Below are positions 13,433 to 64,000 of a stretch of 64,000 bases of DNA, piece after piece. Positions within the stretch are counted from its first letter, which is position 1, and every line of letters starts with the position of its first letter. The stretch is taken from NCBI GenBank assembly GCA_035402825.1, contig DAONDZ010000002.1, positions 1,854-65,853 on the forward strand, written 5' to 3'. The position numbers were made by a program, and so were the translations under genes. The notes under the pieces are model-generated. The model saw only the letters and a program-made list of their open reading frames with translations. It did not search any database and was not told the origin of the DNA. Source of the DNA: a bacterium (GTDB lineage: Bacteria > Patescibacteriota > Patescibacteriia > Patescibacteriales > UBA12465).

Positions 13433-13473
13433 AATAGGTAAAATTATCACAAAAATGCACTATTGTCAACAAA

Positions 13474-20018: not shown

Positions 20019-20023
20019 AGAAA

Positions 20024-20494
20024 TTATTGATGTTTTAATTTAACAATTTTATCCGCCTTAATTTTAGCTTCCTGTTCTAAGAAGAAACGATTGACTCCGG
20101 GAATAACTTTTAACCAATTGCGAATTAGTTCCACGATTTTTTTCATTTTCACCTTAGCTTGGCTCATCAACTGATTGATCTTTCTGGTGGTCTCCTCGCC
20201 CTTGGCCTTAAACTGTCCCTGGGCTTGGGGTGACATTTGTAAATAGGTATCTTCCAAACCTTCGGAAAGAATCTGTTCTATCTGTTCCAAACGAGCTTCA
20301 TATAGCGACTTAGTTCTAACCGGAGCCGCCACGGGAGCACTGGGCTGAGGAGTCGGCTCACCCTTAGTCTCCATCTTTTCAACTTTTTTTTCTATAGCAA
20401 CCTCCACCTGGCTGGAATCATCAGGGGTGGAAATAGCTTCAGACTGCCCCAGGGGAGCAGTTTCAATTTTATTGGCAATATTTTCTTCGGACAT
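20024..20494 (-). CDS. Hypothetical protein (acidic/Pro-rich N-terminus, helical C-terminus), in an operon with the T4CP-like ATPase
   Basis: 156-aa ORF with a 5-nt gap to the ATPase gene and a 2-nt gap from the ferredoxin gene. No family recognised. Confidence 0.45.
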   Translation of the reverse strand: MSEENIANKIETAPLGQSEAISTPDDSSQVEVAIEKKVEKMETKGEPTPQPSAPVAAPVRTKSLYEARLEQIEQILSEGLEDTYLQMSPQAQGQFKAKGEETTRKINQLMSQAKVKMKKIVELIRNWLKVIPGVNRFFLEQEAKIKADKIVKLKHQ

Positions 20495-20496
20495 AG

Positions 20497-20670
20497 TTAT
20501 TCTACGGTAATCGCTTCTACCGGACAGGAAGCAGCGGCGGTTCTAGCGCAATCAGTATTATCCTGGCTAATCACCTCAGACTTCCCGGCTTGGTTCATTT
20601 GAAAGGTATCGGGGCAAGTATTAGCGCATAAACCGCAACCCACGCATAAATCTTGATTAACTTTAATCAT
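20497..20670 (-). CDS. Small single-cluster [4Fe-4S] ferredoxin (57 aa)
   Basis: Below the ORF-track cutoff. Translation: MIKVNQDLCVGCGLCANTCPDTFQMNQAGKSEVISQDNTDCARTAAASCPVEAITVE. The pattern CxxCxxC...CP plus a distal C...CP matches Thermotoga/Pyrococcus-type mini-ferredoxins. SD-like aagga lies 8 nt upstream. Confidence 0.75.
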   Translation of the reverse strand: MIKVNQDLCVGCGLCANTCPDTFQMNQAGKSEVISQDNTDCARTAAASCPVEAITVE

Positions 20671-24723: not shown

Positions 24724-26349
24724 TTAGTAGCGACCGACGATAATCTCAGTAATTTCGTCTTTATTTAAATCTTCGCTTAATAGATCTAATTTACCGCTTT
24801 TCCCTAAATTTTCCACAGAGAAACTGGCTAAGAGCTTGGCTCTGAGGCTAAAAATCTTTAGTTTATCCTGTCCCCCAGCTGGCAAAGTAGCGATTTCCAG
24901 CTGGCCATCGCCATTATAATCCCCTAAAGACACCAAAACCGCGGCGGTTTTTAGTCGGGGATAAGGATTAAATGCCCCTACCAGCTTCTGATTATAATAT
25001 ATCCACACCCCCGGGCGGCTATAAGCTCCTGAGCCCTTTATCCCCACCCCATTGATTAAATTAGTTCTAGCCCCCTTTTGTACCTTGCTACTGACTAATT
25101 GAGTGGCCACGGTTTTCCCGGATAAATCATAGCCGCTATAAGTGCCACCTGAAAATAAAGACGATTGAAGAGAACGCACTCTTTCCAGGAGCCAACCGCT
25201 GCGGGCAGGCACGGAAATGCTTTTCGTTTTAGCTTTTTTCCCCACTAAGCGATATTCTGTTTCCAAATTAATAGTCGTTTCTTGAGCTTGAGGATTTAAA
25301 ATGGCTAGGCCATTTCTAAACTCCCGGCGATAATACTTGGCGCCGGTTTCATCAAATAATTCCTGAGCTGCGCCTAAGGGTTCGCCTAAATTAAAATCGT
25401 ATTCTTTAAACCACCAAGATTGACCGTGGTCGGAAATATTGCGGTCAAAGCTGAAATAAATGTTATCAAACAAAACCGAGCTGGAGAGTCCGTAAAGACG
25501 CCGAGAAAAATTGTCGCTCTCGTTGTTGGTTAGATTAAAAACATAAATTTGCGGAGACAAGTTAACCGCTTGAATTTTCTGATAGCTGGAAATATTATCT
25601 TCCCAGGTACCCCGTCCTTCATAAACGCTGGGAAAATCTTCAAACAAACGGCCGTTTAAATATTGGTGATACGGCAGATAGGAACTGCTGTTAGCCAATA
25701 AAATATATTTTGAGCCGACTCTATCACGAGTAGCTGACAAAATATTCTCCACACCTTCTTGCCAGGCTCTATTTAACTCCGCAGTTCCCTCCCGACGGCC
25801 ATCGCCGTTTATATCTACATCGCCGCCATTTAGCCAGGCAACATCTTCCCAGAGATTATCAAAAAAGATTCCATCCCAGAGACCGGAAGACAGAATTTCT
25901 TCGTCTATAAAGCGGGGCAAGTAATCATCAAAACCACTATTGGCCACGTTAATCATCCAGGTGTCCGGCCAAAAACTGATTTTTTTGCCGGCTTCATCGC
26001 GCAGATACCAAGAATCCGGCAGAGCAGCAAACATTTTTTGCCGCAGGGGGATATTATATAAGGCGGTATCGTTTCTAATTTCCTGGGAGCTGATATAGGC
26101 CAGAATAATGATATCGGGATGGAGCTCTTTAATCTTTTTCAATCTTTGCGGATTAACCGCCTGATTTTCCATGTCTAATATTAGAACGTCAAACTTAGCC
26201 AATCCCGCCACCTCAGCATCGGTTATTTGCCAACGCAAAAAAGCATTGGCGGTTTTAGGATTAGCCTGGCCAATGCTCGCGGCTGAAGCGAAACTAGCTC
26301 CGCCCAGAAGGCTTAGAGCTAAAAATAAAATTATGATTTTTTGGCGCAT
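24724..26349 (-). CDS. Secreted putative glycoside hydrolase (GHL15/GH114-like) with a short FG-GAP C-terminus; paralog of 11414-13432
   Basis: Signal peptide present. NPKTANAFLRWQITDAEVAGLAKFDVLILDME...HPDIIILAYIS...LWDGIFFDNLW aligns closely with the 678-aa protein. C-terminal motifs GDYNGDGQLE and EDLNKDEITE are present. Confidence 0.6.
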   Translation of the reverse strand: MRQKIIILFLALSLLGGASFASAASIGQANPKTANAFLRWQITDAEVAGLAKFDVLILDMENQAVNPQRLKKIKELHPDIIILAYISSQEIRNDTALYNIPLRQKMFAALPDSWYLRDEAGKKISFWPDTWMINVANSGFDDYLPRFIDEEILSSGLWDGIFFDNLWEDVAWLNGGDVDINGDGRREGTAELNRAWQEGVENILSATRDRVGSKYILLANSSSYLPYHQYLNGRLFEDFPSVYEGRGTWEDNISSYQKIQAVNLSPQIYVFNLTNNESDNFSRRLYGLSSSVLFDNIYFSFDRNISDHGQSWWFKEYDFNLGEPLGAAQELFDETGAKYYRREFRNGLAILNPQAQETTINLETEYRLVGKKAKTKSISVPARSGWLLERVRSLQSSLFSGGTYSGYDLSGKTVATQLVSSKVQKGARTNLINGVGIKGSGAYSRPGVWIYYNQKLVGAFNPYPRLKTAAVLVSLGDYNGDGQLEIATLPAGGQDKLKIFSLRAKLLASFSVENLGKSGKLDLLSEDLNKDEITEIIVGRY

Positions 26350-31035: not shown

Positions 31036-32967
31036 TTATTGTAATCCTACCTGTAAGCTCTGGTCAGCGGTTAAAGTCGATTCGGTTTCTAATTTTCCGC
31101 CACTGGAAACGTTAAGGGCGGCGCTCATTCCGGCGGCGCTATTAATCTCGGAAAGAAAATCCAAGCTCAAGTCTAAAGCCTTAGCTCGATTGCCCGCCTG
31201 TTTCTGAATTAGCAAATTATAATTCCCCTCTTTCACCTGGCTCCAAACTGAATCCGGTAATTTATATTCAAATTCCAAATAGCCTTCTTCGCCCGGTTCA
31301 ATGGACAAGAAAGAACCGAAATAAGTTTTAGCTTTAGTCTCATCATCAAAAGTATCATCCTTGACTTCTAAGCTGCCATCAACGTAACCGGCTGACTTAA
31401 TCAGTTTTGATCCTTGCGGCACATAGACTCTAGTGTAGCTGCGATAGCGGGTAGTCTTCCAATCAAATCCACCGCCATGGCGATAATCTATTCTGACTTT
31501 AGCATATAACCCATCATCCTTTTCGGACAAAGAATAGTCAATGGTTTTTTCCATAACTCGATCAGTCTTGAAGGCGGCCAAGTTGGCGTCCACCACCATT
31601 AGATAGTCATTGGGCGAAGCCTTCATTTCCCCGTTCCAACCTAAACTCTTGGCTATATTTTGGAGAGAGCGATCGTTGAAATAAACTAAAATGTTTTTTT
31701 GATAGATGTCGGAGTTCACCGTCTGCAGTAATTCGGCGTAACGGCTGGTGGGCAAATTAAACAAACGATCTTTGAGGACACTGAATATTTCGCCAATAAC
31801 TTTTTTTCTATCCCATTGCGATTCTCCGCGATCGCGATAAGCCATTTCCACTTCATATTGCAAGAGTTCTACAAAATTATCTTTAGTATATTCCTGGCCG
31901 CCCACAGTAATCGGACCGACTAGATATAATAAGTTGGTGACGAAAGTTGGAGTAATTGCTAAGACGCCATCAAAGTTAGGAGCGGGGTTAATCGTCGGAT
32001 CATTGCTATAAGGCGCCTCAGTTTTGTAAGCCCATTCAATCTGCTTGGCAGAAGTCGGCCAATCTGGAGACCAGTTGGAATCACGTAAATACCAATTGCT
32101 CACGCCTAAATATTTTTGAATCGGCCAAGGCGGCACCACTTTAAAATTAGGATTAATGGAGGCCGGCATATCTAAGTGATATGAATCATGGGTCTGAATA
32201 GTCACCACGCTGCCGTTTTTGACCTGCATCACTCCTAAGGTACCGATAAAGCCGCCGGTGGGACGCAATTCATCGCTATTTTGTAAAACTATTAAATAAT
32301 TGGAAGCTTGAGGGTAACCAGCTACTTGGGGCAAAATCTGGGAGAGGGTCAAAGCTTGGCTCAAAAGTTCCGAGCCTAAAATCAATTTATCCCGGACATC
32401 ATTAATCTGCCCTTTCAATACTCCTAAAAATCCTTGACCGGAAACTTGGCGCAAATCCATAGAAGCCAAATCAATGTCGGCTTTCAAGCCATTCAACTCC
32501 GGTCCGGATTCATAGAGCAAGCGCAAGATTTCTCTTTTTTTAGTTTCTGATAAATCATTAAAGCTCCGGCCTGGTTCATCAGCTATCGCGCCTTCTATTT
32601 TTTCAGCCACTAAGGAGCCGCGGGCAACGGAACGACTCAATACTTCAGCCGTCTTGAGTAGATATTCCCACTCCGCCAAAGTGTCCTGGGAATAATTAAA
32701 GCTCTGCCAGACTTTCTTAGCCCGCAAACTGCTTAAATATTCCGAACCGCTTTTAAAATTATTACTCGCCTTATCCGCCGATTCCGAAGCTGCGGCAAAA
32801 TCGCCGGATTGCAATTGAGCGGCCGCCGCTTCTAAATTGTTTTTCCCGGCCATCGCCGATTTATATAAATGCGGCGCGCCAAAAATCAAAGGCAAATTGA
32901 GAATCAAAACTATGCCAATGAATATCAACGCTGCTAACCCCAAATAACGTAAAATTTTTCCGATCAT
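31036..32967 (-). CDS. DUF4012-like membrane-anchored protein; paralog of 40014-42422
   Basis: N-terminal TM and a helical region, then conserved blocks: LRPTGGFIGTLGVMQVKNGSV, DWPTSAKQIEW, DGVLAITPTFVTNLL, YLMVVDANLAAFKTDRVM and RVYVPQGSKLI. Confidence 0.7.
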   Translation of the reverse strand: MIGKILRYLGLAALIFIGIVLILNLPLIFGAPHLYKSAMAGKNNLEAAAAQLQSGDFAAASESADKASNNFKSGSEYLSSLRAKKVWQSFNYSQDTLAEWEYLLKTAEVLSRSVARGSLVAEKIEGAIADEPGRSFNDLSETKKREILRLLYESGPELNGLKADIDLASMDLRQVSGQGFLGVLKGQINDVRDKLILGSELLSQALTLSQILPQVAGYPQASNYLIVLQNSDELRPTGGFIGTLGVMQVKNGSVVTIQTHDSYHLDMPASINPNFKVVPPWPIQKYLGVSNWYLRDSNWSPDWPTSAKQIEWAYKTEAPYSNDPTINPAPNFDGVLAITPTFVTNLLYLVGPITVGGQEYTKDNFVELLQYEVEMAYRDRGESQWDRKKVIGEIFSVLKDRLFNLPTSRYAELLQTVNSDIYQKNILVYFNDRSLQNIAKSLGWNGEMKASPNDYLMVVDANLAAFKTDRVMEKTIDYSLSEKDDGLYAKVRIDYRHGGGFDWKTTRYRSYTRVYVPQGSKLIKSAGYVDGSLEVKDDTFDDETKAKTYFGSFLSIEPGEEGYLEFEYKLPDSVWSQVKEGNYNLLIQKQAGNRAKALDLSLDFLSEINSAAGMSAALNVSSGGKLETESTLTADQSLQVGLQ

Positions 32968-40013: not shown

Positions 40014-42422
40014 TTATTCTTTAAATAATAGATAATAATAATGATCACCCAATAAGGGTTGAGAGCTTCTGTTCTTCCCTTCCATTATACCTAAATCATT
40101 AGGATATTGCCAGGCAATTTGGTGGCGACTTTGATTGACTAAATTCCAATAAAAGCTCCGATTCAACGCTCCCGGCTGGCTTTGCACCAAGAGTGAATAG
40201 CGGTATTTATTTTCCTTCTTCCATAAAGACCGAATCTTATTCCAAAACCCGGAGACCGGGGCTTTTTTTAAAGCAAACGGCAATTCATAGCGCAAATTAA
40301 TTAGAGCAGTCTCTCCCGGATCAACTATGGACCAATTGGCAAAAACCGTCTTGCCGTCTTCGGAATATATTTTGGTATTACTGCGACTATCAATCTCCGC
40401 CGATACTTCATTTTCCTGGATAAAAGAATTGGTCTCCGCTGCAGCTATCGGCGTTTCAAAAGCTGCTGCATCCGGACTTTCAAAACCGCTGGCCGAAATC
40501 AATTTAGATCCTTGTGGTACATAAACCCGTAACCAATCTAAATTACGCAAGCCGGTGAATGGTTCGCCCTTCACTCCCTGATGAGCCCGACTAATGGTTA
40601 GATTAGCCTCTAGCTGACCGTTAGGAGATATCACTAATTCATAATCAATGTGCTCTTTAATCACCCGATCGGTCTTGCCGCCGCCGATATTGGTATCTAC
40701 CACCGAAAGATAATCATCGGGCGCCGCTTCAATCTTCCCGCCCCAAGAATTATCAACCACCTGCTTTTCCAGCTTGGGATCGGAGAAATATAATAAGATT
40801 TGTTTCTCATTTAAATTATCATTCATGATGCGCAAAAGCTCCGGTAAGGTTTGGCCGTTTAAGCGATTAGGAATGTCCGCCATCAGCTTGTCAAACAAAG
40901 CGCCAATAATCTTTTTTGGTTCTTTAATATCGGTTTCCTTGGCAATCTTTTCGTTTTTTTGTACTGTCTCCGGCAATTTCTGCCCCCAATTTGAACTGGT
41001 GGAATATAATTCCGGCTGACCGTTTTTTTCGATAATCGCCTGAGTAGTCGCCCAGAAATTATCAGCATCAATAGTGACCCCATAATCAGCTTGCAAATCA
41101 ACCGGGCCAAAAACTTTCAACAAATCCTCAATGACCGTCGGTGTCACCGCGATCACTCCGTCCACAGTCGGCCCATCGCTTTTTTCATAAAACCACATTA
41201 AGTTGCGGGCGCTTCTTTCCCAATCCGGCCACCAATTAGCGTCCCAAAAATACCACAGCGCCGATACTAAGCGCAAAGGTTCGGGAGCGGCCACTAAGGC
41301 GCGCATCCCCCCGGCCGTTTCATATGATCCGCCAGCAGGAATAGTTAAATTCTTGATGCGTCCCGATTTGACGTCCAGCAAGGCATAGCTGCCAATGAAT
41401 CCGCCACTGGCTCGCAATTCGTTGTTATTTTGAAAGACAAAAAGATAACGGCGATCTTGACTGCCCCCTAAAAAATTATTAGCTTGATCGGTAAAATTAA
41501 CTAACTCAGTTAAGGCCTTAGACAGGTTCTGACTTTGTTCCTGAAGACTGATTAGAGTGTCTTGATATTCAGTCGGAAAACGCTTAACCTTTAGGCTGCT
41601 TAAAGTATGATTTAGTTTATCCACTTTCTCTTGAGCTAATTTTGCCCCCTCACCAAACTTATCAATCACCTCAATTAAAGACTTAGATTCTCCGATATTG
41701 CTTTGAGATAATGATTGCCAAAGTCCAGCCAAGCTTTCGCCCAATTCAGCGGTTTGCAAACCGATTTGAGCTATCTTCTTGCCTTCGCTAGCCAGTTTCA
41801 CTTCCGGGTTAGAAGACAAGGAGCTTAAAGCTAAAGCCAGTTCATCTACTTGGTTAAAATCATCTTCAATCTGACGGAAACTGTCAGCAGCGCCGGCAAA
41901 ACTCTTCCCTGCGGCCGCAATATCACCCTGACCGACTTTCTGAGAAGCGGTGAGCATCGCAGTCAAAGCATCTTTGGATTGAGATAATAAATCAGCTCGA
42001 AAGCCATTGGGCTGAGCTAAATAATAATAACTGATTAATTTAAAAGGAATCGCCAACAAAAGCAAAATAAGAGCAAAGTATAAAAAATAACGCCAAGTGA
42101 TTCGATCCTTCTTCCCTGACCACAAACTTTCTTCGCGCCGCAGCAAATTAAAACGAGTTTCAGGAAATAAGGTTGGCTGTTTTTTCTGACGGAAGTGGGA
42201 CCAAGTAATCTTAATTTTTTTTAAAATCCGGCGCCACAGAGATTCTCCGGGTTCAGTCGGCCGCTTCTTTTCCGGACGCATAAAATTAGGGCCAGAAGAT
42301 TTCTGACGACGCTTGGGATGAGCGGCAGCGGTAATTTCCGGCCGCAGATCAACCAAAAAATTAGAGCCGCGCGCTAAATTCTTAGCTGAGTTTAATTTTA
42401 CCCTAACTTGTTTTTTGGCCAT
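40014..42422 (-). CDS. DUF4012-like membrane-anchored protein; paralog of 31036-32967
   Basis: Basic N-terminus, TM, a helical region, then LRASGGFIGSYALLDVKSGRI, DWERSARNLMW, DGVIAVTPTVIEDLL, YLSVVDTNIGGGKTDRVI and RVYVPQGSKLI. Confidence 0.7.
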   Translation of the reverse strand: MAKKQVRVKLNSAKNLARGSNFLVDLRPEITAAAHPKRRQKSSGPNFMRPEKKRPTEPGESLWRRILKKIKITWSHFRQKKQPTLFPETRFNLLRREESLWSGKKDRITWRYFLYFALILLLLAIPFKLISYYYLAQPNGFRADLLSQSKDALTAMLTASQKVGQGDIAAAGKSFAGAADSFRQIEDDFNQVDELALALSSLSSNPEVKLASEGKKIAQIGLQTAELGESLAGLWQSLSQSNIGESKSLIEVIDKFGEGAKLAQEKVDKLNHTLSSLKVKRFPTEYQDTLISLQEQSQNLSKALTELVNFTDQANNFLGGSQDRRYLFVFQNNNELRASGGFIGSYALLDVKSGRIKNLTIPAGGSYETAGGMRALVAAPEPLRLVSALWYFWDANWWPDWERSARNLMWFYEKSDGPTVDGVIAVTPTVIEDLLKVFGPVDLQADYGVTIDADNFWATTQAIIEKNGQPELYSTSSNWGQKLPETVQKNEKIAKETDIKEPKKIIGALFDKLMADIPNRLNGQTLPELLRIMNDNLNEKQILLYFSDPKLEKQVVDNSWGGKIEAAPDDYLSVVDTNIGGGKTDRVIKEHIDYELVISPNGQLEANLTISRAHQGVKGEPFTGLRNLDWLRVYVPQGSKLISASGFESPDAAAFETPIAAAETNSFIQENEVSAEIDSRSNTKIYSEDGKTVFANWSIVDPGETALINLRYELPFALKKAPVSGFWNKIRSLWKKENKYRYSLLVQSQPGALNRSFYWNLVNQSRHQIAWQYPNDLGIMEGKNRSSQPLLGDHYYYLLFKE

Positions 42423-53365: not shown

Positions 53366-54049
53366 TTAGTCCACTAAAGTGATAAATAGGTCTTCGTTAG
53401 GTTCATGAGGTAAATGAGAAATATTATTGATGTAGCCGACTTTAATATAGCCATCGCGGTCAATTACCAATTTGCTAATTGAGGATTGATAGATCTCTAA
53501 AGATAGAAAACCAATGATATCGGCATTGACGATACTGGTGATAATAGTCTTGATAATATTACCATGACAGAATAGAGCTACCCGCTTGCCGCGGTTGTGG
53601 TGATAAATATCAGCCAACAAGCGCCGGGCTTCGGTCTGCATGGTATCCAGCTGTTTATCCAGCCGGCGATAATGCACTAGCTTGCTCTTGCGGGCTGTTT
53701 CGGAAGTATTAAAATATTTTATCCGATGCCAATCATGCCAATCAATTTCATTCAAGCGCTCGTCAATAATCAATTTCTTGCCGGTCTTCTCCACTAATGG
53801 CCGGGCAGTTTCTTGAGATCGCAATAATTCACTGGCGTATATTTTATCAATCTCTTTTTTGAGCATGATCTTTGTCAGATACTGTCTTTGCTTCAAACCG
53901 ACGACAGAAAGCGGCATATTAAAATCACCCACGGTTTTTTCAGTGGAATAATCGGGATTGCCGTGGCGTACCAAGTAGATAACCGTATAAGGCTGGCGCG
54001 TTTTGGGTTTTAATTTAATGTATGGGTTCTGATATTGCCTCTTAGTCAT
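53366..54049 (-). CDS. Histidine phosphatase superfamily (phosphoglycerate mutase-like) protein
   Basis: VIYLVRHGNPDYS (RHG motif) and a later FCHGNIIK. The track start at 54076 is a TTG that overlaps sod. The ATG at 54049 lies 1 nt after the sod stop. Confidence 0.7.
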   Translation of the reverse strand: MTKRQYQNPYIKLKPKTRQPYTVIYLVRHGNPDYSTEKTVGDFNMPLSVVGLKQRQYLTKIMLKKEIDKIYASELLRSQETARPLVEKTGKKLIIDERLNEIDWHDWHRIKYFNTSETARKSKLVHYRRLDKQLDTMQTEARRLLADIYHHNRGKRVALFCHGNIIKTIITSIVNADIIGFLSLEIYQSSISKLVIDRDGYIKVGYINNISHLPHEPNEDLFITLVD

Positions 54050-54050
54050 A

Positions 54051-54641
54051 TTAGGATTTAAAATTAGCGGCGGCAAATTCCCAATTCAAGAGATGATCAA
54101 TAATCGCCTGGACATAATCGCCGCGGCGATTTTGATAGTCTAAATAATAAGCATGCTCCCAAACATCAATAGTTAAAAGCGGCTTGGCGCCCTGAGCCAA
54201 AGGATTGTCAGCATTACTCGTCTTGCTAATCTGCAACTTCCCCGCTTCATAAACTAACCACACCCAGCCGCTGCCGAATTGAGCCAAGGCAGCCGCCTTT
54301 AATTCTTCCTTAAATTTATCCACTCCCCCGAAATCAGTTTCAATTTGCGCTAATAGCTCGCCGGCCAATTCGGTCTGCGGCTTTAAGCTTTGCCAATAGA
54401 AATCATGATTAAACACCTGGGCGGCATTATTAAAAATTCCAGCCGCCTCACTTTTGCCAGCCGTTCCTTTAATTATTTCTTCCAAGCTCTGCGTCTCCCA
54501 AACAGTTCCCGCCACCAGCTTATTCAAATTATCCACGTAAGCCTGATGATGCTTGCCATAATGGAAGCTAAGAGTATTCTCCGAAATATATGGGGCTAAG
54601 ACCTCCGGAGAAAAAGGCAAAGGCTTTAAATTGAAAGACAT
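54051..54641 (-). CDS. Fe/Mn superoxide dismutase
   Basis: [29 protein letters not shown] and [15 protein letters not shown]. Confidence 0.9.
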
Positions 54642-54653
54642 ATGTTTTTTAAG

Positions 54654-55397
54654 TTAGGCTATAATAAATTTTAATAATAGCATTATCCCTAATCCCAAAA
54701 TAATTCCCGCAAACTGGCGTAGACCACTCAATAAACTAACCTCTTTCTTTAATTCCGGAATCAAATCAGCGGTGGCGATATAAATAAAGCTGCCGGCAGT
54801 CAAAGGAATAATCAAATCAATAAACCCCTGGCTATTAGTCCCGAAAAACCAAGCCAAGACTGCGCCGATTACAGAAAACGAAGCGGAGAGAAGATTCAAG
54901 GCTAAAGCGCGCTTGGGTTTGTAGCCGGCATGAAGCAAGGTGCCAAAATCGCCCAGCTCTTGCGGTATTTCATGAGCAATAACGGCAATGGTGGTGACTA
55001 TTCCTAAACGGAAATCAACTAAAAAGCTGCCAGCGATAATGAAACCGTCAATTAAATTATGCAGCCCGTCTCCTACTAAATTCATCATTCCCACCGGATG
55101 AGGATGATTCTCATTGGGCGAGAGATGGCAATGGCGCCAATGGACAATCTTTTCCAAAACGAAAAATAATAATACGCCGGCCACTAAAGTTATCCAGAGC
55201 TCCAGGCCGTTATTCTTCGCCACCGCTTCCGGCAATAGATGGAAAAAGGTATCACCAATTAATGTTCCAGCCGAAAAACTAACCAAGAACATTATTAAAC
55301 GATTCAAATTATTTTTGGAAACGGTCAAGACTAAGATACCCAGAAGAGAAATCAGGGAGGTAATAATTGAGGCTAGTAGAATATAAATTAGGGTCAT
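54654..55397 (-). CDS. zupT: ZIP-family divalent metal (zinc) transporter
   Basis: 8 TM segments, HNLIDGFIIAGSF and AHEIPQELGDFG. Confidence 0.8.
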   Translation of the reverse strand: MTLIYILLASIITSLISLLGILVLTVSKNNLNRLIMFLVSFSAGTLIGDTFFHLLPEAVAKNNGLELWITLVAGVLLFFVLEKIVHWRHCHLSPNENHPHPVGMMNLVGDGLHNLIDGFIIAGSFLVDFRLGIVTTIAVIAHEIPQELGDFGTLLHAGYKPKRALALNLLSASFSVIGAVLAWFFGTNSQGFIDLIIPLTAGSFIYIATADLIPELKKEVSLLSGLRQFAGIILGLGIMLLLKFIIA

Positions 55398-55400
55398 AGA

Positions 55401-55811
55401 TTATTTTTTCTTAGCTGCTTTAGGTTTTTTATTTTCAGTCTGCTTCTTTTCATATTCGGCAATTACGTTCTTGAGTCCTTCCACCGCCATTACGGAACAA
55501 TGGACTTTCTGATTGGGCAAGCCACCTAAATCGGAAACGATAGTGGACCAATCAAATTTCTTAGCTTGAGCCAAAGTCATTCCCTTTACTTTCTCAGTCA
55601 TCACTGAAGCGGTGGCAATATTAGACGCACAGCCGAAAGACAAGAATTTAATGTCTTTAATCTTGCCCTTTTCCACTTTAATGGAAAAAGACAATTGATC
55701 GCCGCACACTCGGTTGCCAATCTCAATTACTGCATCAGCATTTTTTACTTCCCCAATATTTTTCGGATGCAAAAAATGATTGATAGTTTTTTTAGTATAA
55801 TTAAGGGCCAT
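55401..55811 (-). CDS. NifU/IscU-type Fe-S cluster scaffold
   Basis: Three conserved Cys in context (NRVCGDQ, FGCASNIATAS, VHCSVMA). Confidence 0.8.
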   Translation of the reverse strand: MALNYTKKTINHFLHPKNIGEVKNADAVIEIGNRVCGDQLSFSIKVEKGKIKDIKFLSFGCASNIATASVMTEKVKGMTLAQAKKFDWSTIVSDLGGLPNQKVHCSVMAVEGLKNVIAEYEKKQTENKKPKAAKKK

Positions 55812-55821
55812 ATGATTTAAG

Positions 55822-56976
55822 TTAATTTTTAATCGGGGAAAAACTGCGCAAACGGCTCACGGTTTTCTGAAGAGCCTTAAGAGCGTAGTCAATCTCTTTC
55901 TTGGTATTATATTTTCCCAAAGAAAATCTAATATTGCTATTTAAATTATCATCAGCTATTCCCAGGGCTGCCAAAACTGAAGAGCTCTTCAAGTTTAAAG
56001 CCGAGCAGGCTGAACCGGTGGAGACATAGACGCCTTGGTAAGATAAATCCATTAAAATAGCTTCTCCTTCAATACGGGAGAACATCAAATTTAAATTATT
56101 GGGCGTCCGTTTCTTCAAATCGCCGTTAATATTAACGTCAGGAATATTCTTTTTAATCTGCGCTAAAAGATAATCCCGCAGTTCTTTAACCTTTTTGAGA
56201 TAAGCGGTACGTTCTTGATAAGCTAAAGTCAAAGCCTCGGTAAAACCGATGATGCCCGGCACGTTATAAGTTCCGGCCCGCATTCCTTTCTCTTGGCCGC
56301 CGCCGACAATCAGCGGCTTAATTCTGACCGCCGGATTAATAACGGCCAAACCCACCCCCAAAGGACCATAGAACTTATGCCCCGATAGGCTCAAGAAATC
56401 AATATTATCTTTTTCAATATTGATCTTCAAATAAGGCACCGCCTGAACCGCATCGGTATGGAAAAGAACTCCTCGCTCATGAACTAAGCGGCTAATAGCG
56501 GCAATGTCCTGGATAGTACCAATCTCATTATTAACCGTCATAATGGAGACTAAAACCGTTTGGGGGCCGATTAAATTTTTCAATTTCCCCAAATCAATTA
56601 ATCCTCGGCTATCCACCGGCGCTATATCCACTTTAAAGCCTTCGTCTTCTAGCTCTTTGGCCGACTGGCGAACGCAAGGATGTTCAATAGCCGAAATAAT
56701 CAAATGATTGCCCCGCTCTCGATTAGCTCGCATCACCCCCTTGATGATGAAGTTATTAGCTTCAGTAGCCGAAGCGGTAAATACCAAGCGTTCCGGTTTA
56801 ACTCCCAAGAGCTGACCGATTTTAATTTTGCATTTTTTAATAGCCGCGTCATTGTCTTGCCCTAATTTATGAATACTGGAAGCGTTGCCAAAATGATTCA
56901 AAAAATAAGGCTTCATCCGAGCTAAAACGCGCGGATCAATCCTGGTGGTAGCGGCATTATCTAAATAAACCTGCAT
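55822..56976 (-). CDS. Cysteine desulfurase (NifS/IscS class)
   Basis: PLP-Lys SGHKFYGP and the catalytic loop STGSACS. Confidence 0.85.
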   Translation of the reverse strand: MQVYLDNAATTRIDPRVLARMKPYFLNHFGNASSIHKLGQDNDAAIKKCKIKIGQLLGVKPERLVFTASATEANNFIIKGVMRANRERGNHLIISAIEHPCVRQSAKELEDEGFKVDIAPVDSRGLIDLGKLKNLIGPQTVLVSIMTVNNEIGTIQDIAAISRLVHERGVLFHTDAVQAVPYLKINIEKDNIDFLSLSGHKFYGPLGVGLAVINPAVRIKPLIVGGGQEKGMRAGTYNVPGIIGFTEALTLAYQERTAYLKKVKELRDYLLAQIKKNIPDVNINGDLKKRTPNNLNLMFSRIEGEAILMDLSYQGVYVSTGSACSALNLKSSSVLAALGIADDNLNSNIRFSLGKYNTKKEIDYALKALQKTVSRLRSFSPIKN

Positions 56977-56981
56977 ATGAT

Positions 56982-57611
56982 TTATTTTAGCTCAATAGCA
57001 TTAATAATCGCATCAACGGTGGGATGATTTTGGACGGTGTTGTTGACCGGCAAAGCTTCAATTTTGTCCACAACATCCATGCCGGATACTACCTTGCCGA
57101 AATTAGTATGTTTGCCATCTAGCCAAGGAGTGGCCTCGGCGGTCACGATGAAAAATTGAGAACCATTGGTGTTGGCGCCGCCGTTAGCCATGGCCAAAGA
57201 ACCGCGCACTAAAGGATGATTATTAATTTCATCTTGGAAATAATAACCCGGTCCGCCAGTGCCGTCATCGGACCAATCATCATCTTTGCTGTTAGGACAG
57301 CCGCCTTGGATCATAAAGTCGGTAATCACTCGGTGAAACTTAGTGCCGGTATAGAATCCGTCCTTAACTAAATTCATAAAATTATTGACGGTCACCGGGG
57401 ACTCCGGATAGAACTCCACTTCAATATTTCCCATGTTGGTCTTGATTATCGCACCGGTATACTTGGCGAAATAATCATCTTGCTCCGGCAAAACCCGAAC
57501 GTTTTCCGGAATAGTATTGTTTGTCTCTGACATATTTTTGTTTTCCTTACTGCAAGCACTTAAGGTTAGGGTCAAAATTAAACCCAAAAATAACCATAAA
57601 TAGCGTTTCAT
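56982..57611 (-). CDS. Cyclophilin-type peptidyl-prolyl isomerase lipoprotein
   Basis: Lipobox LTLSAC, plus [13 protein letters not shown] and GSQFFI. Confidence 0.85.
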
Positions 57612-59259: not shown

Positions 59260-59622
59260 ATGACAGCATCATATGAAAAAGTGGAACATCTTTTCAAAAA
59301 GATGGAAGCTTTCTTTGCCCGCCAAGCCAGAGAGGAAGCCGATTATATCTTTATTTTAATGGCCCTCTATTGCACCGTGGAACTTATTGAACCGGAGCAA
59401 AAAGAAACCCTGAGAATCTTTCAGGAAAAGTTTGCGGAGTTAAAAGCCAACCACATTGATGAAATGATTGACGGTGACATGCAAATGCTCATCAATCGAA
59501 TTACCAAAAAGCTGGAGCAAATCAATGCTCTGTGCTCCTCCGAAACCGAAGTTGACCCAACAGGAAAAAATGAATTGCTGAATAGCCAAATTAACTTGGT
59601 GGTCAGCCGGTTAAAATATTAA
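59260..59622 (+). CDS. Hypothetical helical protein
   Basis: 120-aa ORF followed by a strong terminator. No family recognised. Confidence 0.4.
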   Translation: MTASYEKVEHLFKKMEAFFARQAREEADYIFILMALYCTVELIEPEQKETLRIFQEKFAELKANHIDEMIDGDMQMLINRITKKLEQINALCSSETEVDPTGKNELLNSQINLVVSRLKY

Positions 59623-59633
59623 ACTACCGAAAC

Positions 59634-59670
59634 AAAAAAAGGCACGCGCCAAAAACGCGTGCCTCTTTAA
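59634..59670. terminator. Bidirectional terminator between convergent genes
   Basis: aaaaaaAGGCACGCGccaaaaaCGCGTGCCTcttt: 9-bp GC-rich stem. Confidence 0.7.
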
Positions 59671-59689: not shown

Positions 59690-59950
59690 CTATTCCCCAA
59701 ATACCACGCTCTCCACCTTGATGCCTTTAAGAGCTCTGATTTTTTCTACCAATTCATCAATCCGATCCTTCTCCGCCTCTACGGCTAAAACGATTAATCC
59801 CGGACATTGGGAAACGCAACGTTTTTCCACGTTGACTCCCATTCGGGCATTAATCAAATGGCCGGACTCGGTTAGCAGCTCGTTTAAACCGGCCACATTA
59901 GCTTGGCGATCGGAAACGAGAATGGTAATTGAACCAAGAACTTGATTCAT
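59690..59950 (-). CDS. TM1266-like small ACT-fold protein (putative iron-only hydrogenase system regulator family)
   Basis: 86 aa. ITILVSDRQANVAGLNELLTESGHLINARMGVNV...LIVLAVEAEKDRIDELVEKIRALKGIKVESVVF follows the TM1266/TIGR03959 pattern as I remember it. It sits at the end of the hydrogenase gene string. Confidence 0.65.
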   Translation of the reverse strand: MNQVLGSITILVSDRQANVAGLNELLTESGHLINARMGVNVEKRCVSQCPGLIVLAVEAEKDRIDELVEKIRALKGIKVESVVFGE

Positions 59951-59960
59951 ATGATTAATA

Positions 59961-60491
59961 TTATATTCTTCTTAACCATTTTAAAATAAAGAAAGCAATA
60001 ATTCCGCCTAAGAGCGCCGAAAATAATTGCGGCCAGGACATCATGGCGTTTACTAAAGTTTCCAGGCGTGGTTCATTTAAAAATTTCACCACTGCTTTAG
60101 CCACCACGAACAAAAAAGCGAATTTAAATAAAGCGCCGGAAACCACTGCCGGCCAATAGGGCTCATTGCCTTTTAAGCGATAATATAAATAGTTAATGGT
60201 GCTGATAAAAACTAAATTAGATAAAATTATCACCGGTACTAGCGGGGCCATTATCGGTAGTAATAACCCGCCGCTTAGAGCCATTAAACTAGGCACGAAA
60301 GCCACCAAGGCGGCTAGGCGCCAGCCGCTTAAAAACAAAACGATTATTAAAACAGCATTAACTAGTGGTCCAGTTATCCATTGATTATGAATAAAAAAAG
60401 GCGCCGCCGCGGCAGTAAATGCCAGAAGCAAAGACCAAACCCAAGTTCGGCTATCTACTTTCTCCAAAGCTAGACTGGAAGTTAAAGCCAT
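59961..60491 (-). CDS. Polytopic membrane protein (5-6 TM), function unknown; ECF S-component-like at best
   Basis: 176 aa of mostly TM helices (FFIHNQWITGPLVNAVLIIVLFL...). It starts 1 nt after the hydA stop. Confidence 0.45.
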   Translation of the reverse strand: MALTSSLALEKVDSRTWVWSLLLAFTAAAAPFFIHNQWITGPLVNAVLIIVLFLSGWRLAALVAFVPSLMALSGGLLLPIMAPLVPVIILSNLVFISTINYLYYRLKGNEPYWPAVVSGALFKFAFLFVVAKAVVKFLNEPRLETLVNAMMSWPQLFSALLGGIIAFFILKWLRRI

Positions 60492-60492
60492 A

Positions 60493-62205
60493 TTATTTTC
60501 GCTTCTTATATTTAGTGTGCAACACGCTATGCCCTAATTTATTATCCTCCAGCCATTTTAGTACATCCAGAACCTCTTGATTCTTATGCGCCTGGCGAAT
60601 AGATTTAAACTTATCAATCTCATACAAGGATTTAATTCTTTCTTTTCTGATTTTAGCATTAGTGGGAATCGGCTGACCGCCGCCGCCGATACATCCTCCC
60701 GGACAAGCCATGACTTCGATATAATGATATTTTTTCAAATGCGGCAAAACCTTATCTATTACCCCGATACCATTCACCACCGCTACTTTAAGTTTCTGGC
60801 CGCCAATATCAATAGTTGCTTCCCTAAACTCCTCTAAGCCCCGCACTTCTTTGAAATCAATCCGGGAATTACAAAGCTTGGCCTTTTCATCTTGGCAAAC
60901 CAAAGAATAGGCCGTGCGCAGAGCCGATTCCATTACCCCGCCCGAAGAACCATAAATCACGGCCGCTCCAGAGCCTTCGTTAAATATCTTGTCGCTAGCC
61001 ATCGGCTCCAGTTTGGTAAAATCAATTTTCTTTTTCTTGAGCATATAGGCCAGCTCGCGAGTGGTAATCACATAGTCCACCGGATAAAGTCCGTTGACTT
61101 TCATTTCTTCCCGTCGGCATTCAAACTTCTTAGCCGTACAAGGCATCACCGAGACCACTACAATTTTTTTTGGATCAACTTTTAACTTCTTAGCCCAATA
61201 AGTTTTAATAATTCCCCCCAAATGGATTTGCGGCGAACGAGAAGTAGTTAGATTAGGAATCAACTCCGGGTGGAAAAACTCCACGTACTTCACCCAGGCT
61301 GGACAGCAGGAAGTAATCATGGGAAGCTGAGCTTTCTTATCACTCAAACGTTTTAACAACTCCTGAGCTTCCACCATAGTTGTAACATCGGCGCTGAAAT
61401 TAACATCAAAAACATTCTTGAATCCCAGTTTCTTCAATCCCGCCACAGTGCGGCCAGTAGCCAATTCGTTATAGGGTAAACCAAATTCTTCTCCCAGGGT
61501 CACTCGAACCGAAGGAGCGAATTGCGCTACCACTATCTTTTTCTTATCCGCCAAAACTTTTTCCACCTTATCCCAATCAGCCTGTTCTTGAGCCGAAGCT
61601 ACCGGACAATGCAAAGCGCATTGGCCGCAATAGATACAATCAATTTTTTTGTTTTTAGTGGGTATTATTTCCTGATTAATTCCCTTGCCGTTAATTTCCA
61701 AATAATTGATATTTTGCATCTTGGAACAGGCATCCACACAATTTCGGCAATCAATACATTGGCTGCCGTCAATTTCTACGGCATTAGCGAATTTATAGGT
61801 CTTTCTTTTTGATTTACGATCATAGAAACGATTAATCTTGATATTATATCTCTTAGCCAAATCCAACAGCGCGCAATCAAACCGCAAGGTGCAATTAGAG
61901 CACTTTTCAATATGCTCGGCAAAAAGCAATTCAATATTGGAATTGCGAGAAACCTCCACGAGTGGCGAATCAGTTTGCACTTCCATCCCCTCTTGAACCA
62001 CAGTGGAACAAGCGGTTTGTAATTTCCGACAGCCAGCCACCTCCACCACGCAAACCCGGCAGTTAGCCTTCACCTTGAAGTCCGGATGCTGGCACAAAGC
62101 CGGCACAAAGATATTATTATCTTTAGCCGCTTCCAAAATAGTCTGCCCGGGAGTAGCTTTAACTTTTTGGCCGTTAATTTTTAGATTAATCAATTTCGAA
62201 GCCAT
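60493..62205 (-). CDS. hydA: [FeFe]-hydrogenase catalytic subunit, CpI-like M3 architecture
   Basis: N-terminal 2Fe-2S fold (CQHPDFKVKANCRVCVVEV), a His-ligated 4Fe-4S (HIEKCSNCTLRFDC) and two ferredoxin 4Fe-4S motifs (CIDCRNCVDAC, CIYCGQCALHCP). H-cluster motifs are TSCCPAWV, MPCTAKKFE and EVMACPGGCIGGGGQP. Confidence 0.9.
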   Translation of the reverse strand: MASKLINLKINGQKVKATPGQTILEAAKDNNIFVPALCQHPDFKVKANCRVCVVEVAGCRKLQTACSTVVQEGMEVQTDSPLVEVSRNSNIELLFAEHIEKCSNCTLRFDCALLDLAKRYNIKINRFYDRKSKRKTYKFANAVEIDGSQCIDCRNCVDACSKMQNINYLEINGKGINQEIIPTKNKKIDCIYCGQCALHCPVASAQEQADWDKVEKVLADKKKIVVAQFAPSVRVTLGEEFGLPYNELATGRTVAGLKKLGFKNVFDVNFSADVTTMVEAQELLKRLSDKKAQLPMITSCCPAWVKYVEFFHPELIPNLTTSRSPQIHLGGIIKTYWAKKLKVDPKKIVVVSVMPCTAKKFECRREEMKVNGLYPVDYVITTRELAYMLKKKKIDFTKLEPMASDKIFNEGSGAAVIYGSSGGVMESALRTAYSLVCQDEKAKLCNSRIDFKEVRGLEEFREATIDIGGQKLKVAVVNGIGVIDKVLPHLKKYHYIEVMACPGGCIGGGGQPIPTNAKIRKERIKSLYEIDKFKSIRQAHKNQEVLDVLKWLEDNKLGHSVLHTKYKKRK

Positions 62206-62207
62206 AA

Positions 62208-62963
62208 TTATTTAGTCTTGCTCTTGATTTGTTTCAAATCACGATAGATAAAATAGGTATAGACCAAAAACCAAGGGGTCAATAAATAGGAAGCGATTTG
62301 AATGATAAAATTATAGGCCATTTCAGCTGTTCCCCCATCGGCCATTACTGCTCGCGGGATAGAAACGATAATACTGACAATAATCATGAATAGGCCGAAA
62401 TAAATGTAGCGACCAAACACTGGCCACCAATAGCCTTTCACCAAACCTTTACTGGCCTTAATTGCCTGATATCCTCTTACCCCTTCAAAAATGAAGACGA
62501 AGAAAGACATAGAATAAAACACCCAGAATATAATACCAGGTACAATCAGCAACAAGGACCAAGCCAAAACCAACAATCCGGTTAACAGTGATAGACCCAA
62601 ACCGGACCAGAAAATTTTGCGAGTAGCTTTATAGTTAGTCTTAAAATCAGCTTTCGGATCCTTGACCACTAAATACATACCAACTTGGCCGCGGAAAGCA
62701 AAATAAATAGTTAACAGCAATAAGATAGCTGAAACAACGCCACCAACAATCATTAACCAAGTCTTGCCGGCCAAGAAAGAACCGCCCATTAACAAAGTGA
62801 TGACAACGGTAAAAATGATAATCGGCACCACCATGGCCAAAATCATCTTGAACATGGCTTTGAAATTAGCCTTATACCAATTAAACGAGTCCTTGAACAA
62901 TTGCCAAGGCGCGGTAATCCGATAACTCAATTGAGGTCCGGATTGATTTTGTTCTTCATTCAT
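62208..62963 (-). CDS. Polytopic membrane protein (about 6 TM), function unknown
   Basis: 251-aa ORF between the nuoF-like gene and hydA. The downstream gap is 2 nt and the upstream gap 23 nt. Confidence 0.45.
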   Translation of the reverse strand: MNEEQNQSGPQLSYRITAPWQLFKDSFNWYKANFKAMFKMILAMVVPIIIFTVVITLLMGGSFLAGKTWLMIVGGVVSAILLLLTIYFAFRGQVGMYLVVKDPKADFKTNYKATRKIFWSGLGLSLLTGLLVLAWSLLLIVPGIIFWVFYSMSFFVFIFEGVRGYQAIKASKGLVKGYWWPVFGRYIYFGLFMIIVSIIVSIPRAVMADGGTAEMAYNFIIQIASYLLTPWFLVYTYFIYRDLKQIKSKTK

Positions 62964-62986
62964 ACTTTTTTTATTTAATTAATTTT

Positions 62987-64000
62987 TTACGTATTTAAAA
63001 TTTTGTCTAATTTGTCATTCCACACATTTTCCAAATAGCTCTTAACCGATACCGGCAAAGCGGCCCCCAAAGCGCAGAAAGAGCTTTGTTCTAAATCGCT
63101 CAATATGGCATTTAAGAACTTCTGATCTAATTCCCCCTTTTTTAGTAAATCCCAAAGGCGATAGGTGCCTTCGCGGCAAGGCGTACATTGCCCGCAAGAA
63201 TTATCTTTAAAGAACTGAAACCAAGACAACATTAATTTCTTAGGATCGGTTTTGAATAAATCATAAACGGTAATGGAGCCGGCACCGGAAACTAATTTTT
63301 CTAGTTGCTGACTGTTTAAAACTTCCCCGCTGGCATCGCCTCCCACTTGGACAAAGAAGGGCTTGTTCGGCCAATTATCGCTTTCTACCAATATTCTTTT
63401 GATGGTCCACTTAGAAGGATAGACAAAAACTCCGGGATGGGGTAAAGCGCCATTTAAGGAATAGAAACGAAAATCATAATACTCGTTTTGATTCACCAAG
63501 GAAACGTTATAGAAAGTCTCCACATTATTAATCAGCGTCGGCCGACCAAACAATCCTTCTTCAGTCGGAAAAGGCGGACGCAAGCGCGGCTCTAATCTTT
63601 GGCCCTCAATTAGATTTAAAATTGTCGTTTCCTCGCCGCCGATATAGCCGGCGCCTTCCGGCTTCACAAAGAACTCCAGCTTCCCTTTCAATTTCTGGCG
63701 ATTGACCGCCGCAGTTAATATTTTTTTATACTCTTGATAATATTTGGGATTGATATAAAAATAGATTTTCTCAGCTCCCAAAAACTCCCAAGCTAAACGG
63801 ACTCCCTCCAGCACTCTCTCCGGATAATTCGCTAAGATAAAACCATCCTTTAAAATCCCCGGTTCACCCTCAGCGGCATTAATCACGATATAAGGCTTAA
63901 CCTTCTTGGTCATTGCCGCCTCTTTCACCGCCTGCCACTTTAAAGCCGTCGGATAACAAGCTCCGCCGCGGCCGATGAGGTTTGCCTGTTTAATTTTTGC
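62987..64000 (-). CDS. NuoF/HydB-like NADH-binding flavoprotein subunit (N-terminus beyond the right edge)
   Basis: The track starts at a GTG at 63928, but the frame stays open to the window end and reads AKIKQANLIGRGGACYPTALKWQAVKEAA..., which is the GRGGAGFPTGLKW motif. Later motifs are NAAEGEPG, GYIGGEETTILNLIEG, PPFPTEEGLFGRPTLINNVETF and the N3 cluster SCGQCTPCREG...FCALG. Confidence 0.85.
   Translation of the reverse strand, partial: AKIKQANLIGRGGACYPTALKWQAVKEAAMTKKVKPYIVINAAEGEPGILKDGFILANYPERVLEGVRLAWEFLGAEKIYFYINPKYYQEYKKILTAAVNRQKLKGKLEFFVKPEGAGYIGGEETTILNLIEGQRLEPRLRPPFPTEEGLFGRPTLINNVETFYNVSLVNQNEYYDFRFYSLNGALPHPGVFVYPSKWTIKRILVESDNWPNKPFFVQVGGDASGEVLNSQQLEKLVSGAGSITVYDLFKTDPKKLMLSWFQFFKDNSCGQCTPCREGTYRLWDLLKKGELDQKFLNAILSDLEQSSFCALGAALPVSVKSYLENVWNDKLDKILNT

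Follow-up and report, generated by a model that had tools for sequence, protein, structure and literature searches.

A putative two-subunit NADH-linked [FeFe]-hydrogenase of Patescibacteria encoded with optional membrane-protein genes

A [FeFe]-hydrogenase gene interleaved with the genes of two polytopic membrane proteins raises the question of what these proteins do for the enzyme, and of which electron donor the enzyme itself uses. Such a locus lies at one end of a 64,000-nucleotide stretch of a Patescibacteriota genome (contig DAONDZ010000002.1), the whole of which is called the window here. An original prediction read the tight packing of the genes as a sign of either a membrane-tethered hydrogenase complex or transporters co-expressed with the enzyme, and considered neither to have been described for hydrogenases of the Candidate Phyla Radiation (CPR). 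We analysed the locus by profile searches, structure prediction and comparison with related loci. The explanation that we favour, with a somewhat better than even chance of being right, is a soluble, non-bifurcating hydrogenase of two subunits linked to reduced nicotinamide adenine dinucleotide (NADH), accompanied by accessory membrane genes, one of which would encode a supplier protein resembling the S-component of energy-coupling factor (ECF) transporters. The features of the locus, with protein lengths in amino acids (aa), are as follows.

62987-64000 and beyond the window edge, minus strand: NuoF-like (hydB-like) gene, encoding a short NuoF-type flavoprotein with a predicted flavin mononucleotide (FMN)/NADH site and one [4Fe-4S] cluster
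62208-62963, minus strand: gene of a 251-aa polytopic membrane protein, YciC/UPF0259/DUF975 type
60493-62205, minus strand: hydA, encoding a predicted group A [FeFe]-hydrogenase of 570 aa
59961-60491, minus strand: gene of a 176-aa membrane protein with six predicted helices, ECF S-component-like
59690-59950, minus strand: gene of an 86-aa TM1266-like ACT-domain protein, a putative small-ligand-binding regulator
59636-59668: predicted intrinsic terminator hairpin closing the operon; it can serve both strands, with a mirror hairpin on the plus strand

The invariant unit of the locus

To see which genes travel with HydA, we scanned species-representative genomes and found 69 HydA loci, 50 of which had enough flanking DNA to be counted; the window proteins were matched against all open reading frames (ORFs) of these HydA-seeded loci. 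Nearly all of the loci were labelled Falkowbacteria, Patescibacteria, Nealsonbacteria, Komeilibacteria or Peregrinibacteria, or were evidently mislabelled bins of such bacteria, and the cultured Minisyncoccus archaeiphilus was among the 69. The counts were as follows.

Short NuoF beside HydA: 50 of 50 loci
GAPDH gene upstream: 41 of 50
CCA-adding enzyme gene at the locus: 36 of 50
251-aa gene beside HydA: 24 of 50
176-aa gene beside HydA: 18 of 50
ACT gene beside HydA: 18 of 50
None of the three accessory genes (251-aa, 176-aa, ACT): 6 of 50
All three accessory genes as in the window: 3 of 50

The invariant unit is the pair of short NuoF and HydA, which was also present in the more distant loci L156, L160, L162 and L159, and both membrane genes are optional at the locus. 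This operon type is typical of Falkowbacteria-like Patescibacteria. Conservation of the five-gene order had been proposed as a check on the original prediction, and the full window arrangement recurred in those three loci only. An obligatory membrane-tethered complex likewise finds little room in these data, with 26 of the 50 loci lacking the 251-aa gene, 32 lacking the 176-aa gene and six lacking all three accessory genes. As a separate observation on the bins, those labelled 'Candidatus Omnitrophota' or 'uncultured Gammaproteobacteria' that carry this operon (L002, L003 and many more) appear to bear wrong labels.

The flavoprotein has markers of non-bifurcating hydrogenases

The NuoF-like frame is open to the window edge (reading ...GRGGACYPTALKW...), and it had been said to run off the window. 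On the parent contig the full protein has 343 aa (L001:8188-9219), its 5′ end lying 18 nucleotides (nt) past the window; the 313-aa version with a GTG start in the ORF list falls short of the true gene, which extends past the edge. Pfam searches returned Complex1_51K (E=1.4e-34) and NADH_4Fe-4S (E=1.2e-15), both above their cut-offs, and nothing else, so that the protein lacks extra ferredoxin domains. Alignments to PDB sequences begin at residue 52 of Thermus Nqo1, with about 50 N-terminal residues of canonical NuoF missing, and stop before the C-terminal ferredoxin domains of HydB; internally the protein is shorter by about 35-40 residues. Both analyses agree with the earlier description of a core-only flavoprotein without C-terminal ferredoxin domains. 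Against the NuoF equivalog model TIGR01959, the 337 aa encoded in the window scored 190.9 bits (cut-off 558.65). Because the best 120 database relatives are all 308-376 aa long, the short form is taken as the norm of the lineage and not as a truncation artefact.

We then compared 88 distinct relatives. The four cysteines of the N3-type [4Fe-4S] cluster were kept in 87-88 of the 88. The variant motifs GRGGACYP and YIGGEE, to which attention had been drawn, are both present in the window protein; across the clade the variant site of the former holds Cys, Gly, Ser or Arg, and the canonical Cys of YICGEE is mostly Gly. Losey et al. 2020 (PMC7311640) defined sequence markers that separate the HydB of non-bifurcating NADH-dependent hydrogenases from that of bifurcating ones. 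The former have Tyr and not Phe by the FMN site, Lys, Ser or Ala and not Met at position 234 of Thermotoga maritima HydB, and Thr or Ser at position 232; they lack GGPSG and extra iron-sulfur domains. We infer the corresponding positions from an alignment to Thermoanaerobacter kivui HydB. With the positions so assigned, Tyr precedes (I/V)xGEE in 88 of 88 sequences, the Lys of the xKD motif is present in 88 of 88, and the SLBB motif of the clade is GG[D/E]A[S/A]GE, not GGPSG. The sequence of the flavoprotein thus appears to carry the markers of non-bifurcating NADH-dependent hydrogenases at all but the Thr/Ser site.

A NuoE-like gene was sought by extending the window on a 148.7-kb metagenome contig (ENA ERZ27257423, k141_1034351), the view of which reaches ±10 kb. 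The extension had been called for originally, and no NuoE-like gene was found on the contig within 10 kb. Nor did a motif scan of the local DNA of about 150 related loci detect any ORF with the NuoE cysteine motif beside them.

HydA is predicted to be catalytic

All three H-cluster motifs that had been recognised in HydA were found, TSCCPAW at residue 298, MPCTAKKFE at 354 and EVMACPGGCIGGGGQP at 497, and the proton-relay cysteine in TSCCP is present. The accessory clusters are represented by a His-ligated [4Fe-4S] motif, two ferredoxin-type [4Fe-4S] motifs and N-terminal cysteines for a [2Fe-2S] cluster. Pfam matches were Fe_hyd_lg_C (E=1.3e-90), Fer2_4 and Fe_hyd_SSU, with sub-threshold matches to the NuoG-type domain of the His-ligated cluster; the domain layout is CpI-like (M3) with a NuoG-like N-terminal iron-sulfur chain. 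HydA passed TIGR02512 (FeFe_hydrog_A) with 464.6 bits against a cut-off of 405.95. Its top NCBIfam model was NF040763, 'NADH-dependent [FeFe] hydrogenase, group A6', at 663.3 bits, which is under the cut-off of 765. The nearest solved structures were the HydA1 subunits of HydABC (469 and 462 bits), followed by CpI (about 410 bits).

Because the H-cluster motifs are intact and TIGR02512 is passed above its cut-off, HydA is read as catalytic and not as sensory. A sensory hydrogenase, which had been named as an outcome to check for, was discarded on these grounds, and HydA is predicted to be the catalytic group A [FeFe]-hydrogenase of a multimeric type.

The 176-aa protein resembles ECF S-components

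The 176-aa protein itself scored 21.5 bits against PF12822, the ECF S-component family (cut-off 30.7; E=2.7e-4), and 62 of 64 relatives matched that family (E<0.01; best 3.8e-10). An AlphaFold2 model had six helices and a predicted local distance difference test (pLDDT) score of 85.1. When this model was searched with Foldseek, the five best matches were all RibU (T. maritima and Staphylococcus aureus; template-modelling score (TM-score) 0.62-0.67, probability 1.0), those to T. maritima RibU scoring 0.63-0.67, and beyond RibU there was no comparable match. The family profile gave no match to PDB sequences even at E<=10. Taken together, the data support an S-component-like, transporter-like protein whose modelled fold is closest to RibU. 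The idea of a transporter, raised originally for both membrane proteins, therefore survives for the 176-aa protein and finds no support for the 251-aa protein, which appears to be of a generic YciC type (see below).

Conservation within the family was then placed on the model. Mean column identity is 69%, and the invariant residues include H35, N45, S68, N92, K123 and Q155. With an N-in/C-in topology assumed, under which most Lys and Arg residues face the predicted cytoplasm, the predicted outward loops L1 and L3 (H35, Q37, G74, G75) are the best conserved (0.87), and the predicted inward loop L4 and the N-terminus the least (0.54-0.56). Such a distribution is more in keeping with a ligand pocket open to the outside than with a docking surface on the cytoplasmic side. 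S-components normally need an EcfT/EcfA module. Six ABC-ATPase-like ORFs occur among the roughly 150 loci, from scans in which no search was aimed at an ECF module.

To follow the linkage from the side of the membrane protein, we collected 80 metagenome loci with the 176-aa family profile, 44 of which had room for the neighbouring gene. HydA lies immediately upstream of the family gene in 39 of these 44, and the remaining five hold it in unrelated contexts; stand-alone CPR copies, away from hydrogenase, are those of L092, L103, L130 and L131. A profile search of 1.84 billion representatives gave 989 clusters, from which eight distant members were sampled. In three of the eight the membrane gene comes first, followed by short NuoF and then HydA. 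Another member is found 5 nt past a gene fusing Fer4, Fe-hydrogenase and methyl-accepting chemotaxis protein (MCP) domains, with no flavoprotein nearby, and four are not beside any hydrogenase. We therefore regard the family as a branch of the S-component superfamily that is associated with hydrogenases, and the linkage persists through gene rearrangement. That the 176-aa gene was inserted once and at random was rejected, the linkage to hydrogenase being too consistent for it.

The fusion locus (L153:3962-6510) deserves a remark of its own. It belongs to a non-CPR genome, GCA_054025675.1, and encodes a 677-aa protein with Fer4, Fe-hydrogenase H-domain and methyl-accepting chemotaxis signalling domains, which resembles a chemoreceptor for hydrogen accompanied by a small membrane protein of its own.

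The association of this family with hydrogenases has been recorded before. We found 302 homologues, many with a precomputed PF12822 match, and their source names include '[Fe] hydrogenase, HymD subunit', 'iron hydrogenase', 'ECF transporter S component' and 'riboflavin transporter'. For the 176-aa gene, the claim of novelty in CPR therefore does not stand, CPR homologues being publicly named HymD subunit or iron hydrogenase already. The name HymD presumably originates with the hymABCD cluster of Eubacterium acidaminophilum; our literature search for HymD found only gene-table mentions. Greening and colleagues 2024 (PMC11216029) describe a 'hyd6TM' gene associated with group A hydrogenases and assign it no function. 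The hydrogenase link of the 176-aa-type gene is thus already known from the HymD label in public annotation and from hyd6TM, and what is distinctive here is the model-based identification of the HymD-like protein as S-component-like.

The 251-aa protein and the ACT protein

The 251-aa protein gave weak NCBIfam matches to YciC (17.4 bits against a cut-off of 227) and BPSS1780, below every curated threshold, and no Pfam match at E<0.01. Among 30 homologues, 16 match PF06790 (UPF0259/YciC), 10 match PF10110 (GPDPase_memb) and three match DUF975. Its AlphaFold2 model is all-helical (pLDDT 91.9), and a fold search with it returned weak matches only, the choline-transporter-like CTL1 (probability 0.95, TM-score 0.52) and then CysZ; the family profile found no match among PDB sequences even at E<=10. 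A relative with 42% identity is encoded in the same hydrogenase operon type (L159), and a Nealsonbacteria relative with 30% identity adjoins YceG, not hydrogenase. The protein appears to belong to a generic YciC-type membrane family recruited into the operon in one Falkowbacteria-like subgroup, and the hydrogenase-specific role once suggested for it gives way before the generic YciC/UPF0259, GPDPase_memb and DUF975 families into which its relatives fall.

The ACT protein passed PF21699 (TM1266-like) with 45.2 bits against a cut-off of 27, in keeping with the identity first given to it. It scored 48.9 bits against TIGR03959 (cut-off 60.8), and sub-threshold matches were to ACT_AHAS_ss (24.4 bits, cut-off 27) and NikR_C (21.5 bits, cut-off 22).

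Transcription unit and neighbouring genes

The ORF list and translation reproduced the five-gene order on the minus strand and its intergenic gaps of 23, 2, 1 and 10 nt, both as first reported. A hydropathy scan found several hydrophobic segments in the 251-aa and 176-aa proteins and none in the NuoF-like protein, HydA or the ACT protein. On the extended contig, the gene of glyceraldehyde-3-phosphate dehydrogenase (GAPDH; gap) ends 8 nt upstream of the hydB-like gene, just outside the window, and PSP1, elongation factor Ts (EF-Ts) and ribosomal protein S2 are encoded farther upstream. The GAPDH start is preceded, at a distance of 29 nt, by a promoter-like site that has an extended -10 element. 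The terminator, a strong one, lies 22 nt past the ACT stop codon; its stem of 15 bp contains seven G-C pairs, and on the minus strand a T-run comes after it. Given the tight gaps, the promoter-like site before GAPDH and the terminator after the ACT gene, the six genes gap, hydB-like, 251-aa gene, hydA, 176-aa gene and ACT gene most likely form a single transcription unit.

Several features around the operon were also noted. A convergent ORF of 120 aa (orf120; 59260-59622, plus strand) shares the bidirectional terminator with the hydrogenase operon; it has no family match, and among the HydA-seeded loci a weak homologue only in L003. Just downstream of the operon, the minus strand at 53366-57611 carries iron-sulfur assembly and metal genes, those of a peptidyl-prolyl isomerase (PPIase), a NifS-like cysteine desulfurase, NifU_N, a ZIP metal transporter, an Fe/Mn superoxide dismutase and a histidine phosphatase, with only orf120 and the gene of the CCA-adding enzyme in between. 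Locus L159 repeats the order S2, EF-Ts, PSP1, GAPDH, HydB, HydA, CCA enzyme, PPIase, NifS. In the NCBI record the 176-aa and 251-aa genes have the locus tags PKI61_04235 and PKI61_04050, about 37 genes apart, whereas one gene intervenes in the window; the spacing of the tags may mean that the record was built from another assembly or orders its contigs differently. Elsewhere in the window, large proteins that are secreted or membrane-bound occur as two paralogous pairs, encoded at 11414-13450 with 24724-26349 and at 31036-32967 with 40014-42422, one pair being of GHL15 (putative glycosyl hydrolase) with FG-GAP repeats and the other of DUF4012 proteins.

Maturases and the mini-ferredoxin

Maturases were sought by motif scans of local DNA, namely the 64-kb window and the locus flanks. 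The window held neither an ORF of at least 280 aa with the radical S-adenosylmethionine (radical-SAM) motif CxxxCxxC nor a true HydF-motif ORF, the matches to the HydF-motif expression being HydA itself; this agrees with the early remark that no maturases were in view. The ±6-8 kb flanks of the roughly 150 related loci held three radical-SAM-motif ORFs only (L013, L027, L031), which were not scanned against HydE/G models, and two of the three also have a C-terminal CxxCx(20-24)C motif. No relevant paper on HydE/F/G or on maturases of Patescibacteria emerged from a literature search.

The 57-aa ORF at 20497-20670, put forward originally as a candidate redox partner, is a genuine single-cluster [4Fe-4S] ferredoxin (Fer4_13, E=2.8e-14). 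On the minus strand at 17481-20670 it is followed by an unannotated 156-aa ORF and then by an 845-aa ATPase resembling type IV secretion coupling proteins (TrwB/TraG domains). The ferredoxin itself is thus real, and it was rejected as a supported partner: the gene is 40 kb away, by the coupling-protein-like gene, and nothing ties it to the operon.

Discussion

In the explanation that we favour, the FMN of the short NuoF-type HydB would accept a hydride from NADH, and the electrons would pass from the single [4Fe-4S] cluster of this subunit through the NuoG-like iron-sulfur chain of HydA to the H-cluster, releasing H2. The hydrogenase would turn the NADH produced by GAPDH, whose gene is co-transcribed, back into its oxidised form, and neither electron bifurcation nor ferredoxin nor a NuoE-type subunit would be involved. 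The 176-aa S-component-like protein would be a binding or uptake protein, most likely supplying a small molecule that the enzyme needs; riboflavin for the FMN of HydB would be the simplest candidate, as yet unproven. The 251-aa protein would be a generic YciC-type protein that entered the operon in one subgroup, with no demonstrated link to hydrogen metabolism. Gene content, family membership, similarity of fold, the synteny counts and the sequence markers are what the analysis shows, whereas NADH specificity, the direction of catalysis, the transport role and its substrate are the parts of this scheme that we infer.

Several points weigh against this explanation. All characterised NuoF-type modules pair with a NuoE-like partner, fused or separate, and NADH-driven H2 formation is favourable only at very low H2 pressure (PMC7311640). 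That a NuoF-type module is stable and functional without a NuoE-like partner is an assumption. The Thr/Ser marker is replaced by Ile in the window protein and mostly by Val in its relatives. As to the supplier, the case for riboflavin is weak: the sub-threshold match of the 176-aa protein is to PF12822, which covers S-components in general, no riboflavin-specific or other substrate-specific family was matched, and a substrate is not assignable from the RibU match because the TM-score is about 0.65 and the identity 12-18%. The MCP fusion beside a distant family member, with no flavoprotein nearby, suggests that the family is tied to the hydrogenase domain as such and not to flavin.

Alternatively, the 176-aa protein, alone or together with the 251-aa protein, might be a structural anchor of HydA and HydB at the cytoplasmic membrane. 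This would account for the translationally tight spacing of 1-2 nt around hydA, for a 176-aa gene adjoining HydA in 39 of 44 loci with a linkage that survives altered gene order, and for the 'HymD subunit' names in source records; the soluble hydrogenase-domain/MCP fusion beside the distant member would plausibly need such an anchor too. It is nevertheless unlikely, since 32 of the 50 hydrogenase loci do without the 176-aa gene beside HydA and 26 without the 251-aa gene, stand-alone copies of the 176-aa-type gene exist, the modelled fold is that of a ligand-binding S-component, and conservation peaks in the predicted outward loops, the cytoplasmic L4 and N-terminus, where the enzyme would dock, being least conserved. 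Quite improbable, in our estimate, is a ferredoxin-dependent or electron-bifurcating hydrogenase using the 57-aa ferredoxin at 20497-20670. That ORF does encode a true single-cluster ferredoxin, and HydA is most similar to HydA1 of bifurcating HydABC; however, the HydB-like protein lacks the extra iron-sulfur domains and GGPSG and has the Tyr and Lys of non-bifurcating enzymes, no HydC/NuoE was found on the contig within 10 kb or beside the roughly 150 loci, and the ferredoxin gene is 40 kb off, in the company of a coupling-protein-like gene.

The S-component-like protein could also serve the H-cluster itself, if in reduced genomes without HydE/F/G it imported a host-made H-cluster precursor or aided cofactor insertion. 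We know of no S-component that carries an organometallic substrate, and the 176-aa gene is missing from most related hydrogenase loci, as is a hydrogenase from beside half of the sampled distant family members. The window has no maturase-motif ORF and the roughly 150 locus flanks only three unclassified radical-SAM-motif ORFs, in scans spanning 64 kb and the flanks and not whole genomes; the linkage reaches a hydrogenase-domain protein without a flavoprotein partner, and the TM1266-like gene, normally found with maturase genes, here stands beside hydA. PMC11216029 discusses maturase-free active [FeFe]-hydrogenases for archaea and some eukaryotes. On balance we consider such a bypass of the maturases very unlikely. 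In its most far-reaching form, genome-reduced and probably host-dependent bacteria would make an active [FeFe]-hydrogenase without HydE/F/G, and the RibU-like protein encoded beside hydA would import a ready-made component of the H-cluster, or some other factor specific to the hydrogenase, from the host or the surroundings. Uptake of such a factor would explain the 176-aa relatives beside hydrogenase-domain proteins without a flavoprotein partner, and we give this form the faintest prospect of all.

The components of the putative two-subunit NADH-linked hydrogenase and their association are already in databases and literature, and the distinctive point appears to be that the NuoE-type module is wholly absent from the flavoprotein partner at these loci. 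If the favoured explanation is true, the short NuoF/HydA pair would be the most stripped-down NADH-linked hydrogenase known, with two proteins and no NuoE-type module, and it would be wired directly to GAPDH. It would explain in concrete terms how fermentative Patescibacteria get rid of reducing equivalents as H2, feeding hydrogen-consuming neighbours or hosts. The S-component-like identity, for its part, would turn an unknown hydrogenase-associated membrane subunit into a testable ligand-binding hypothesis.

Comparison with known systems

The nearest counterparts are the non-bifurcating NADH-dependent hydrogenases (PMC7311640), which likewise combine a group A HydA with a NuoF-type flavoprotein free of added ferredoxin domains, share the Tyr and Lys markers and the absence of GGPSG, and have a proposed role in releasing H2 from NADH at low H2 pressure. 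Those enzymes have a NuoE-like [2Fe-2S] module, fused to HydB or present as HydC, whereas none was found at the CPR loci; the CPR HydB-like protein also lacks the first ~50 NuoF residues and has Ile or Val for Thr/Ser, and its operon adds GAPDH and the optional membrane and ACT genes. With bifurcating HydABC (T. maritima, 7P5H; T. kivui, 7Q4V and 8A6T) the system shares a HydA closest to their HydA1 and a HydB core that aligns over the FMN and [4Fe-4S] region. Unlike HydABC, the CPR locus has no HydC, and its HydB-like protein lacks the N-terminal [2Fe-2S] cluster, the C-terminal pair of [4Fe-4S] clusters and the bifurcation-type markers.

Among the accessory genes, homologues of the 251-aa protein match YciC, UPF0259, DUF975 and GPDPase_memb, families without known function that explain nothing mechanistically. 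The ACT protein resembles the TM1266 family (TIGR03959, PF21699; 'iron-only hydrogenase system regulator, putative') in being a small ACT-like protein encoded with [FeFe]-hydrogenase genes; unlike in that family, its gene lies beside hydA and not beside hydE/F/G, and it recurs in 18 of 50 related loci. The 176-aa protein is comparable to HymD and hyd6TM as a small protein with four to six transmembrane helices encoded beside a group A hydA, a likeness drawn from source names and gene position; a RibU-like fold is not stated in the parts of PMC11216029 that were seen. From RibU (PDB 5KC4, 5KBW, 3P5N) it differs in having 12-18% identity and no riboflavin-specific family match, and with RibU it shares a predicted six-helix fold, a similar size (163-171 aa) and, at the level of its family, the match to PF12822.

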